A stretch of 64,000 bases of DNA from the NCBI GenBank assembly GCA_963735875.1, contig CAVTMO010000017.1, positions 548,040 through 612,039 of the forward strand, given 5' to 3'. Numbering within the stretch: the first letter of the stretch is position 1; every line of letters begins with the position of its first letter. Position numbers and translations under genes: made by a program. Below the pieces are notes generated by a model, which saw only the letters and a list, made by a program, of their open reading frames with translations, searched no databases and was not told where the DNA came from. Shown here one piece after another: positions 5,141 to 7,465 of this stretch. Source of the stretch: an uncultured Acidobacteriota bacterium (GTDB lineage: Bacteria > Acidobacteriota > Vicinamibacteria > Vicinamibacterales > UBA2999).

Positions 5141-5259
5141 CGCGCCGAGTCTACAGCGCCGTGCCCGCGGGCTGTGAGCCAATACACAACCCAGTGTTAT
5201 ATTGACGCCACGCAACCCAACAGCGACGCGCCGCTGCCAGCCTCGGGTCGCTCGAAACA

Positions 5260-5276
5260 CTGGCACGGAAGCCGCA
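5260..5276 (+). promoter_or_regulatory. sigma-54-type -24/-12 promoter candidate
   Basis: CTGGCACGGAAGCCGCA matches YTGGCACGrNNNTTGCW. It has TGGCAC, correctly spaced GG (5262-63) and GC (5274-75), and a trailing A. It lies about 93 nt upstream of ATG 5369 in a 228-bp intergenic region of lower GC. Confidence 0.4.
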
Positions 5277-5368
5277 GGCAGTGTTGGGTCTTTTGGGTGC
5301 CGGCTCGTCTGCCGGCGACACCGCCGCCCGCGCGGATTACGGGCGCATTCCATCAAGGAGCCGCCAAT

Positions 5369-7465
5369 ATGCACAGTCCCAGGAAGTATCTCGAGAAGGG
5401 GCTGTCTCTCGCCGCTCAAGGAACCTGGACTGTGTTCGCGGCCGCCAACCGCCTCCGGCCGGGTCCCTCGATCAAACCCAACTGGTCCGACCTGCCGATG
5501 CTCAAGTCGCACCAGAAGACCAAGCCACCGCTGGGCTGGCCACGGACGACCGACTCCCTGTGTCCGGTCTGCGTCCGGGAAGCCCGCCAGGCGATTCTCG
5601 ACGGCCAGAAGCCCGTCGAGTCGCTGCTGAACGAGAAGGTCGGCGAGATCAAGGCGACCATCCTCGAGCGCGACGGGCGCATCCTGATGGTGAAGGACTG
5701 CCCGCAGCACGGCCATTTCGAAGACGTCATGGCCATCGACACCGCGTTCTTCAAGCACCTCGAGGAGGTCTTCCCGGGCCGCGACATCCGCGCCCACAAC
5801 GACGAGAAGCTGCACAACCACGGCAGCAGCACCATCAAGCACGGCCGTGGCTCGGTGCTCACCGTCGACCTCACCAACCGCTGCAACATGATGTGCGACC
5901 CGTGCTTCATGGACGCCAACCAGGTCGGCTTCGTCCATGAGCTGACTTGGGACGACATCAAGCAGGTGCTCGACAACGCCATCAGCATCAAGCCGAAGCG
6001 CCAGATGTCGGTGCAGTTCTCCGGCGGCGAGCCGACGCTGTCGCCGTACTTCCTCGACGCCGTCCGCTACGCCCGCAAGGTCGGCTACACCTCGGTGCAG
6101 GCGGCGACCAACGGCATCGAGTTCGCCAAGAGCGCGGAGTTCGCCAAGGCGGCGGCCGAGGCCGGGCTGCGCTACGCCTACCTGCAGTTCGACGGCATCG
6201 GCAACGCCGCCAACTCGCACCGCCGCGTCGGCAACCTGTTCGACGTCAAGCTGCAGGCGATCGAGAACCTCTACAACGCCGGCGTCGACATCGTCCCGGT
6301 CATCACCATCGTCAACGGCGTGAACAACGAGCAGGTCGGCCGGGTGATCGAGTTCGCGCTCGACAACCCCAAGAAGATCAACTTCCTGTCGTTCCAGCCG
6401 GTGAGCTTCACCGGCCGCGACGAGCTGATCACCCCCGAGCGGCGGGCGGCGCAGCGCTACACGCTGTCGCACCTGGCCCACGACGTGAAGAACCAGACCG
6501 GGATGGGCGAGCCGGTCCGCGACTGGTTCCCGATCTCGTTCATGGGGACCTTCACCGACTGGGCCGATCAGGTGCACGGCCCCGAAGCGCCGTGGGGCAA
6601 CCTCACCTGCGGCTGCCACCCCAACTGCGGGGTCGGCATGGGCGTGATGATCGACAAGGAAACCAAGGAGGCCGTGCCGGTCACCGAGTTCCTGAACGCC
6701 GATCAGCTCGCCAAGGACGTGGCGGCGGTGACCGACGCCGGGCGCGGGCGCTGGCTGTCGGTCGCCGGCATGGCGCTGGCGGTCGTCCGCAACTACGACG
6801 CCTTCAAGTCGCCGACCCACTTCACGATCCGCGACCTGCTGCGCAAGTTCGACAAGACCTTCGGGGCCACGCCGCACAGCAACGAGAAGTACGGCAGCGT
6901 CGAGGCGACGCGCACCCGGCAGGACATCGAGAAGCGCCGCGACGACCGCTGGAACTTCCTGTTCATCGCCGGGATGTGGTTCCAGGACCTGTTCAACTAC
7001 GACTTCCGGCGCACCGAGATGTGCATCATCCCCTACGCCACCCAGCAGGGCGAGATCTCGTTCTGCGCCTACAACACCGGCGTCGGCTGGCGCAACATCA
7101 TCGAGCAGATGCACATGACCGCCTCGCTGACCAAGTGGTACGAGGAGCACGGCCGGCACGAGATCTTCGCCGGCAACAAGGCGGTGCCGCTGCCGACGAC
7201 GGCGCACTCGCTGGCGCTGAACGCCGAGGCCGTGGCCAAGGGCGCCCAGACCGACCTGGACGTGCTCGGCGTGGCCAAGAACGCCCGCGAGGAGCAGCTC
7301 GAGGCGCGTAAGAAGAAGCAGGCCACCACCGACGAGGCCCGGCGCAATGCCGAGATGGAGCGGCTCTACCGCCAGCACGTGCTCAAGGAACCGGCGATGC
7401 CGATCGTGCAGATCAAGGGGCTGCGCAAGAGCGGCCACCAGGTCGACGAGCCGGTGGTGCACTGA
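5369..7465 (+). CDS. radical SAM enzyme, Tes / GDGT-MAS (MJ0619-type, class D radical SAM)-like; candidate membrane-spanning lipid synthase
   Basis: ATG 5369 preceded by AAGGAG (5355-5360). N-terminal CPVC...(32 aa)...CPQHGHF metal-binding pair. Radical SAM cluster LTNRCNMMCDPCF (CX3CX2C), followed by SGGEPTL. Downstream Cys motifs CGCHPNCGVG and CIIPY...FCAYN. Charged Lys/Arg/Glu-rich C-terminal tail. The long antisense ORF 4871..7477 is judged spurious. Confidence 0.75.
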   Translation: MHSPRKYLEKGLSLAAQGTWTVFAAANRLRPGPSIKPNWSDLPMLKSHQKTKPPLGWPRTTDSLCPVCVREARQAILDGQKPVESLLNEKVGEIKATILERDGRILMVKDCPQHGHFEDVMAIDTAFFKHLEEVFPGRDIRAHNDEKLHNHGSSTIKHGRGSVLTVDLTNRCNMMCDPCFMDANQVGFVHELTWDDIKQVLDNAISIKPKRQMSVQFSGGEPTLSPYFLDAVRYARKVGYTSVQAATNGIEFAKSAEFAKAAAEAGLRYAYLQFDGIGNAANSHRRVGNLFDVKLQAIENLYNAGVDIVPVITIVNGVNNEQVGRVIEFALDNPKKINFLSFQPVSFTGRDELITPERRAAQRYTLSHLAHDVKNQTGMGEPVRDWFPISFMGTFTDWADQVHGPEAPWGNLTCGCHPNCGVGMGVMIDKETKEAVPVTEFLNADQLAKDVAAVTDAGRGRWLSVAGMALAVVRNYDAFKSPTHFTIRDLLRKFDKTFGATPHSNEKYGSVEATRTRQDIEKRRDDRWNFLFIAGMWFQDLFNYDFRRTEMCIIPYATQQGEISFCAYNTGVGWRNIIEQMHMTASLTKWYEEHGRHEIFAGNKAVPLPTTAHSLALNAEAVAKGAQTDLDVLGVAKNAREEQLEARKKKQATTDEARRNAEMERLYRQHVLKEPAMPIVQIKGLRKSGHQVDEPVVH

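Follow-up and report, generated by a model that had tools for sequence, protein, structure and literature searches.

We analysed a 64,000-nucleotide stretch of DNA (hereafter the window) from an uncultured Acidobacteriota bacterium (contig CAVTMO010000017.1) and found that a gene on its + strand (5369..7465, stop included) encodes a 698-residue protein of the radical S-adenosylmethionine (SAM) type whose modelled structure follows that of GDGT-MAS, also called Tes, the archaeal enzyme of glycerol dialkyl glycerol tetraether (GDGT) synthesis. The gene is a variant of its own, with a different cofactor set, within a known family of candidates for making membrane-spanning lipids, and it belongs to an acidobacterial clade whose members have no N-terminal iron-sulfur (Fe-S) cluster motif. 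By analogy with GDGT-MAS, the enzyme would probably couple lipid tails of the iso-diabolic type. A sigma-54 promoter that had been proposed in front of the gene, in contrast, did not stand up to comparison with its orthologues.

A radical SAM protein with the predicted fold of GDGT-MAS

An earlier reading of the window, made from its sequence only, had described an open reading frame (ORF) of 698 residues, and this frame is real: it opens with an ATG at 5369 and its stop ends at 7465, and a third-position GC content of 0.90 on the + strand, within a window of 70.1% GC, marks it as coding. Its translation is further supported by comparisons with Pfam and the Protein Data Bank (PDB) and by AlphaFold2. 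A Shine-Dalgarno-like AAGGAG (5355..5360, +) can be read 8-9 nt ahead of the ATG, and the orthologues show an equivalent (A)GGAG box. All the protein motifs listed in the sequence-only reading are present, namely CPVC (C65/C68), CPQHGH (C111/H114), CNMMCDPC (C172/C176/C179), SGGEPTL (residues 218-224), CGCHPNC (C414/C416/C420), C552 and FC566, and the protein contains exactly 11 cysteines.

Profile, sequence and structure comparisons all bore out the assignment to the Tes/GDGT-MAS-like radical SAM enzymes. Pfam recognised Zn_ribbon_HMPTM at residues 58-122 and Radical_SAM at residues 168-330 (70 bits for the latter), and the top NCBIfam model was the Tes equivalog model (NF045702, with a curated whole-protein cut-off of 450 bits), which aligned over profile positions 2-482 of 486 with a score of 316.6 bits (E 2.5e-94), below that cut-off. 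A phmmer search against the PDB returned GDGT-MAS (7TOL) with E 5e-64, the runner-up being MoaA with E 2.6e-6. The AlphaFold2 model, calculated from a 100-sequence alignment, reached a predicted local distance difference test score (pLDDT) of 85.8 and a predicted template modelling score of 0.86, and Foldseek matched it to 7TOM/7TOL with E 8e-36, a target-normalised template modelling (TM) score of 0.87-0.88 and a root-mean-square deviation of 3.4-3.9 Å. As this match spans 550-558 columns, it reaches past the radical SAM core into the C-terminal domain. The remaining Foldseek matches had E values of 1e-7 or worse and covered the radical SAM core alone, and GDGT-MAS/Tes was the sole full-length structural relative found. 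The model shows that the window protein adopts the GDGT-MAS fold, and the best explanation of the enzyme is a cytoplasmic or membrane-peripheral member of the Tes/GDGT-MAS (HMPTM) superfamily.

No other radical SAM subfamily came closer in these comparisons, and the CPxC...CPxH site is conserved. For a SPASM/twitch peptide maturase, marked by a C-terminal SPASM domain with CX9-15GX4C...CX2CX5CX3C, there was no SPASM match in Pfam, and the maturase models scored 27-47 bits against cut-offs of 265-650, in the core only. TrsS (NF045646) scored 209.8 bits against a cut-off of 490 and covered residues 84-378 only, and a class B (cobalamin-dependent) methylase was rejected on the Pfam matches, which include no B12-binding domain at E up to 0.1.

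Metal sites and clade-specific segments

Four metal sites have been defined in GDGT-MAS by Lloyd et al. (PMC9433317): a rubredoxin-like site (C9X2C12X20C33X2H36), an N-terminal [4Fe-4S] cluster held by C73/C77/C80 and a His, the radical SAM cluster, and a C-terminal [4Fe-4S] cluster with a labile Met439 and a conserved Tyr459, which forms a C-S intermediate. We compared the window protein with these sites in two sets of sequences, one of 83 orthologues (the best 80 of >600 matches of a genome scan plus three close relatives, L081-L083) and the other an alignment of 100 Tes-like sequences (A3), composed of 78 Tes-type sequences and 22 of the window protein's clade and two sister groups.

Three of the sites can be recognised. 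The rubredoxin-like site, C65-x2-C68...C111-x2-H114 (5561..5710, +), is detected by Pfam PF23545 with 52.4 bits (E 3.8e-14; cut-off 27), and its four ligands are invariant in the 83 orthologues. The radical SAM motif C172-x3-C176-x2-C179 (5882..5905, +) is invariant in the orthologues and the wider family, and the SAM-binding GGE motif is present in SGGEPT (218-223). The C-terminal auxiliary cluster region (6608..7066, +) contains C414, C416, H417, C420, M536, C552, Y556 and C566, a ligand set read from the sequence alignment, in which GDGT-MAS has Met439 opposite M536 and Tyr459 opposite Y556. C420, M536, C552, Y556 and C566 are invariant throughout the 100 diverse Tes-like sequences, and all 11 cysteines, H114 and M536 are invariant in the 83 orthologues.

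The fourth site is missing. Where Tes proteins carry the N-terminal [4Fe-4S] ligands CPxxCGLCxxH, the window protein has residues 141-160 (RAHNDEKLHNHGSSTIKHGR; 5789..5848, +), which include no cysteine; the segment aligned to CPYDCGLCPNH of GDGT-MAS is LHNHGSSTIKHGRG, and the cysteine list of the protein has no entry between residues 112 and 171. The CPxxCGLCxxH motif is found in 78/78 Tes-type sequences, which include the Tes proteins of Terriglobia and Planctomycetota named by the Prokaryotic Genome Annotation Pipeline (PGAP) and one euryarchaeal protein, and in 0/22 of the sequences from the window clade and the two sister groups, these 22 being 41-86% identical to the window protein. The His-rich segment that replaces the cluster site shows a conservation of 0.88 among the orthologues. 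The sequence-only reading had predicted three Fe-S sites in addition to the rubredoxin-like site; since the cysteines equivalent to C73/C77/C80 of GDGT-MAS are absent, this prediction has to be corrected, and the ligands present lead us to expect two clusters and one mononuclear site.

The window protein also carries an extension at each end. Residues 1-57 (5369..5539, +) are absent from GDGT-MAS and are modelled with a long helix at residues 4-29 (pLDDT >90 for the extension; conservation among orthologues 0.46-0.77); the Tes profile can be aligned from residue 61 onwards, and the GDGT-MAS chain itself, in phmmer, from residue 92. The C-terminal tail, about residues 600-698 (7166..7462, +), is partly helical or disordered, with pLDDT <50 for residues 614-640 and 680-698. 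This tail had been described as highly charged, and charged it is, but 17 K/R and 16 D/E in residues 591-698 amount to only about 31%, and its conservation is poor (0.22-0.63).

Distribution of the clade and reported acidobacterial lipids

The protein search gave at least 8000 matches, the best 120 of them at 81-100% identity, and the best 80 of the genome-scan matches lie at 73-84% identity. These 80 loci are labelled as Vicinamibacterales (subdivision, SD, 6), Terriglobia (SD1), Bryobacterales/Solibacter (SD3) and Blastocatellia (SD4), and include the cultured Terriglobia Acidipila rosea (L066) and Granulicella aggregans (L080). The closest relatives, L081-L083, share 92, 88 and 86% protein identity with the window protein. 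The Acidobacteriota-like host that had been suggested is supported, with Vicinamibacterales as its nearest kin. Across soil Acidobacteriota the window clade shows very strong conservation (73-92% identity between classes), and the wider family comprises 606 representatives at E <1e-30 after 50% clustering. The gene was also seen at 81-83% identity in metagenome-assembled genomes (MAGs) labelled Bifidobacteriaceae (L003), Betaproteobacteria (L011) and 'proteobacterium' (L014), labels that are likely due to mis-binning or mislabelling.

Iso-diabolic acid has been reported from SD1, 3, 4 and 6 (Sahonero-Canavesi et al., PMC13159169), that is, from the subdivisions in the labels of the best 80 loci, and we counted this agreement in favour of tail coupling. 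Sahonero-Canavesi et al. did not find mss in Acidobacteria genomes and found Tes homologues, at >=30% identity, in only 3/14 acidobacterial producers of iso-diabolic acid. Zeng et al. (2022, PMC8941075) collected 456 bacterial Tes homologues, for which a role in the synthesis of branched GDGTs (brGDGTs) was proposed, and reported homologues at 40-42% in Koribacter and Solibacter; in the brGDGT producer Edaphobacter aggregans the single Tes homologue was reported at 32% identity with E 4e-61 (PMC8941075), and, going by these reported statistics, it would fit the window clade better than the canonical type at 40-42%. For S. usitatus, Halamka et al. suggested a coupling of iso-C15 diethers by 'one or both' of its Tes homologues. 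Correlative evidence from cultures was added by Chen et al. 2025 (summary in PMC13023045), and a targeted search for papers that knock out a bacterial Tes homologue turned up nothing beyond this correlative kind.

Bacterial homologues have therefore already been put forward in print as candidate makers of membrane-spanning lipids (PMC8941075, PMC10087280), as the sequence-only reading had stated, and an acidobacterial candidate is no novelty in itself, since Tes homologues in this phylum were reported in 2022. The general idea is published; the distinction between canonical Tes and a near-universal acidobacterial clade without the N-terminal cluster is not found in the literature that we consulted on Tes homologues.

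Comparison with related enzymes

GDGT-MAS/Tes (MJ0619, 7TOL/7TOM; MA_1486), the archaeal tetraether lipid synthase, has in common with the window protein, besides the fold, the CX2C...CX2H site, the CX3CX2C cluster and the C-terminal cluster with the equivalents of Met439 and Tyr459. The two proteins are, however, only 28% identical; the rubredoxin-like spacer has 42 residues in the window protein and 20 in GDGT-MAS, the window protein is longer by about 57 residues N-terminally and about 100 C-terminally, and it is without the C73/C77/C80 ligands that GDGT-MAS has. Their hosts also differ, the window protein belonging to a bacterium with ester-linked or branched-chain lipids and GDGT-MAS to organisms with archaeol lipids.

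The canonical bacterial Tes-type (P0284, P0359 and the Koribacter/Solibacter homologues at 40-42%) is of the same superfamily and domain order as the window protein, both kinds occur in Acidobacteria and both are proposed makers of brGDGT or iso-diabolic lipids. The canonical proteins keep CPxxCGLCxxH, measure about 500-750 residues (mostly about 540) and are 29-37% identical to the window protein, whereas those of the window clade measure 680-720 residues and are encoded by a stand-alone gene. In one arrangement of the canonical type, seen on two contigs, the Tes gene is followed by two others: in Terriglobia MAG sequence (L086:8001-12851 and L087:4499-9349) the PGAP-named Tes gene precedes genes for a 546-residue radical SAM/SPASM protein and a family 9 glycosyltransferase, and in L086 fatty acid beta-oxidation genes lie upstream. 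This group may be a lipid-modification cluster, unlike the lone gene of the window.

Nearer to the window clade, a sister group at ~56% identity (P0377, P0382, P0388, P0392) is likewise without the N-terminal cluster motif and shares with it the HGxS...GRG segment and the cluster cysteines. Two more diverged relatives, P0141 and P0136 (the latter Terriglobus roseus WP_014786616.1), at 41% identity, have lost key ligands, P0141 the CX3CX2C motif and P0136 the cysteines of CGCHPNC and the equivalents of C552 and C566; they may be inactive or repurposed paralogues.

Mss of Thermotoga and Thermoanaerobacter is, like the enzymes above, a radical SAM protein; it joins two fatty acid tails and provides the route by which bacteria are proven to make diabolic and iso-diabolic acids (Sahonero-Canavesi et al. 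2022). It is set apart from the window protein by its description as only remotely related to Tes and found so far in anaerobes only.

Genomic surroundings

The gene is a stand-alone unit. In all-against-all clustering of the flanking ORFs of 84 loci, no neighbour was common to >12 loci, which ruled out conserved operon partners, and the recurrent flanking genes (msrPQ, amidohydrolase, FolE and MutY) are without lipid connection. Pfam scans of about 40 window ORFs revealed two thiolases and one family 2 glycosyltransferase, and no elbD, plsA/ger or grs-like gene. The isolation from lipid genes that had been remarked on thus holds, with no recognisable lipid gene near the ORF and no conserved neighbour.

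Upstream, an intergenic region of 227 bp (5142..5368) is common to the Tes-like gene and a divergent amidohydrolase gene (3888..5141, -; Pfam Amidohydro_1, E 1.3e-34), which we list as context. This neighbour is kept in the close relatives L081-L083, yet in only about 11/84 loci, and beyond short patches the intergenic region cannot be aligned to what lies upstream of the gene in the closest relatives. Directly downstream, a SulP sulfate permease gene (7493-9218, +) is split over two reading frames, SulP profile positions 1-255 sharing their frame with the ORF that opens at 7493 and positions 257-380 plus the STAS domain falling in ORF 8286-9218; either the gene is a frameshifted pseudogene or the assembly contains an indel. 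As a long ORF, 7493-10036 falsely fuses the SulP part to a CoA-transferase gene, which is separate in L082.

The leader and the proposed sigma-54 promoter

The sequence-only reading had placed the gene under the control of RpoN and an enhancer-binding protein, on the strength of the string CTGGCACGGAAGCCGCA (5260..5276, +), which is indeed there. With TGGCACG-N4-CCGCA it has the correct GG/GC spacing of a -24/-12 promoter and agrees with the consensus at 14/16 positions, and it is intergenic, 93 nt ahead of the ATG; in one sister-group locus (L089, 56% identity) an NtrC-type activator is encoded about 1.6 kb upstream. Strings of this kind, however, are as frequent in the window as shuffling predicts: TGGCAC-N7-GC was observed 3 times against 4.9 expected, and the consensus YTGGCACGrNNNTTGCW with up to 2 mismatches, a class to which the window string belongs (2 mismatches, 10-nt GG/GC spacing), 9 times against 9.03 expected. 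The relaxed pattern TGGCA[CT]-N5-NNGC[AT] occurs in 0/83 orthologous upstream regions (0/80 loci within 350 nt and 0/3 relatives at 92, 88 and 86% identity), the exact consensus has a single occurrence among 89 loci, and that at an unrelated site, and six-frame translations of the 64-kb window contain no GAFTGA or ESELFGH activator motif. Moreover, at the corresponding stretch many Vicinamibacterales-type loci have a CTGAAA/CTGGAA box with no conserved GG/GC pair, followed by a -10-like TATCAT, and the operon promoter of L089 reads TTGACA-N17-TACTAA. Since the by-eye and MAFFT placements of the window TGGCAC against this CTGRAA box differ slightly, we claim only that the corresponding stretch is without sigma-54 elements. 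After strict and relaxed orthologue searches, two chance tests and the six-frame activator search, we rejected the sigma-54 promoter; the match is best judged a chance one, and transcription from it under an enhancer-binding protein is very improbable. Control by sigma-54 would have been the new part of the earlier proposal, and it is not upheld.

The gene is probably driven in this genome by an ordinary sigma-70-type promoter. A candidate picked out by eye is the extended -10-like TGTTATATT (5194..5202, +), at whose aligned position L082 has TAGAAT; a consensus scan in which both hexamers were required returned nothing.

This candidate overlaps the first of three copies of CAGTGTT within 5192..5285 (5192-5198 on the + strand, 5256-5262 on the - strand and 5279-5285 on the + strand), which had been noticed before with the first copy set at 5193. 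The three are all the copies in the 64 kb, and a 7-mer as surprising appeared in 2/5000 leader shuffles. The triple is not conserved in the orthologues, including L081 (92% protein identity), and is thus non-random but private to this genome; the copies could be operator sites of a lineage-specific regulator. The two alternative leader pairings that had been proposed from them, of 8 bp and 7 bp, exist, yet a riboswitch or attenuator is unsupported, as shuffled versions of the leader RNA fold just as well (z = -0.44) and the leader has no Rfam match at E up to 1 and no terminator-like site. The leader had also been described as lower in GC and 228 bp long: its 66.1% is indeed below the 70.1% of the window, but the coding sequence has 66.3%, so the leader is not distinct from the gene, and its length is 227 bp.

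A separate observation concerns L016, where TGGCACCG-type units (GGCACCGTGGCACCGTGGCACCTTGGCACC...), each about 8-9 nt long, stand in tandem some 170-260 nt before the orthologous ATG. The array repeats TGGCAC many times without a -12 element at the correct spacing and has a microsatellite-like appearance.

Phased repeats and regulators in relatives

Upstream of the orthologues, the motif CC[AG]TT[CT][AG] (CCRTTYR) occurs on the coding strand at 4.3 against 0.45 per kb, an enrichment of about 10-fold, and shows no enrichment on the opposite strand. Successive copies are 20-21 bp or 41 bp apart, the 84 upstream regions yield 40 correctly phased pairs and the 2.74 Mb outside them 11, and a -10-like TAnn[AT]T peaks 35 nt past the last copy. 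The arrays consist of two or three direct repeats, lie 100-220 nt upstream of the orthologous ATG and are seen in several acidobacterial classes (loci including L002, L006, L009, L014, L015, L024, L028, L030, L032, L076 and L078); in many Vicinamibacterales-type loci the module reads TTGaCCgTTC / TGCCCGTTC / GGCCCGTTCGCTGAAAA / cTATCATTTAGCG. By a strict criterion 30/83 loci have the module. The window, like its two nearest alignable relatives (L081, L082), has lost it.

In the ~56% sister group a different arrangement is found. A gene for an Rrf2-family regulator lies upstream of the Tes-like gene and on the same strand in 4/4 loci (L084:5500-5937, L085:5494-5928, L088:2490-2927 and L089:1475-1882), whereas the window clade has no linked regulator. 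The two Rrf2 proteins that were read, those of L084 and L085, contain no obvious Fe-S cysteine cluster. The linkage suggests dedicated transcriptional control of the sister-group genes.

Discussion

From the fold and the ligands described above, and by analogy with GDGT-MAS, we infer a substrate and a product: the window enzyme would, with somewhat better than even probability, couple lipid tails into membrane-spanning lipids of the iso-diabolic type. In such a reaction SAM would be cleaved reductively to a 5'-deoxyadenosyl radical, which would take a hydrogen from a lipid tail at its terminal methyl carbon, the tail being most likely an iso-C15 acyl or alkyl chain of a glycerolipid. The resulting substrate radical would be held on a sulfide of the C-terminal cluster through a C-S bond until a second SAM turnover activates a second tail and a tail-to-tail C-C bond is formed. 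The products would be membrane-spanning lipids of the iso-diabolic-acid type, the skeleton of brGDGTs.

Several points weigh against this proposal. The score of the protein misses the curated Tes cut-off (316.6 vs 450 bits), and the clade is without one of the four metallocofactor sites of GDGT-MAS, so that it may differ in electron delivery or even in its chemistry. The Tes-like gene has no linked lipid gene, and its most likely promoter, by inference only, is the by-eye assignment of TGTTATATT at 5194-5202. The tail-coupling activity is a prediction for this clade, and according to Boukhchtaber et al. (2025, PMC11868695) experiments had yet to confirm that bacterial Tes homologues make membrane-spanning lipids. 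The correlation with subdivisions is one-sided, in that it covers the producers (SD8, 10 and 23 are the non-producing subdivisions), and the match to the E. aggregans homologue is drawn from reported statistics, not from its sequence.

Some of these points would also follow if the enzyme used the Tes fold for another radical modification of a hydrophobic substrate, such as a different cross-link, a mid-chain coupling or a reaction on a non-glycerolipid, and not for the tail-to-tail bond of membrane-spanning lipids. A score under the equivalog cut-off, a conserved His-rich segment in place of the N-terminal [4Fe-4S] site and clade-specific extensions at both termini could all be read in this way; some Acidobacteria hold in addition a canonical PGAP-named Tes (P0284), possibly the true coupling enzyme, and the ligand losses of P0141 and P0136 show that function drifts in the family. 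Against it, the residues of C-C coupling in GDGT-MAS (the ligands of the C-terminal cluster and the equivalents of Met439 and Tyr459) are invariant, the structural match that Foldseek found with GDGT-MAS includes the C-terminal domain, and the labels of the best 80 loci fit the iso-diabolic-acid subdivisions, most of whose producers are without mss and canonical Tes. We regard such a modification as unlikely, although it is a serious competitor. Far less credible is a pterin C-methylase, the old HMPTM annotation (7,8-dihydro-6-hydroxymethylpterin dimethyltransferase, class D): this is the name given to many homologues by the Joint Genome Institute, and the name of the Pfam domain stems from the same annotation, but Acidobacteria are not known to make methanopterin, and we hold this function to be extremely improbable.

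Returning to tail coupling, the results can be joined, tentatively, in a broader proposal that we consider possible rather than probable: the clade without the N-terminal cluster, and not the canonical Tes-type, would generally carry out the tail coupling that leads to iso-diabolic acid and brGDGT in SD1, 3, 4 and 6, needing an Fe-S cluster less than its archaeal counterpart, and would be controlled in many lineages by a putative regulator that binds a phased array of three CCRTTYR repeats ahead of the promoter and in the sister group by Rrf2. If this were true, it would explain why earlier surveys at 30% identity found 'Tes' in 3/14 producers.

Our results suggest that the acidobacterial Tes homologues fall in two kinds, the kind in the window having been recovered from all four groups of subdivisions reported to make iso-diabolic acid. 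Because this clade fails the usual Tes thresholds, surveys based on thresholds would undercount it. Its missing Fe-S cluster makes it a natural test of the role of the N-terminal cluster in Tes, and the conserved phased repeats upstream of many orthologues are a handle for finding the regulator. The brGDGTs are widely used as proxies of past temperature and pH, and for their coupling enzyme in aerobic soil bacteria the candidates in print are the acidobacterial Tes homologues; if the joint proposal is right, a switch that binds the repeats could link oxygen or temperature to brGDGT production.

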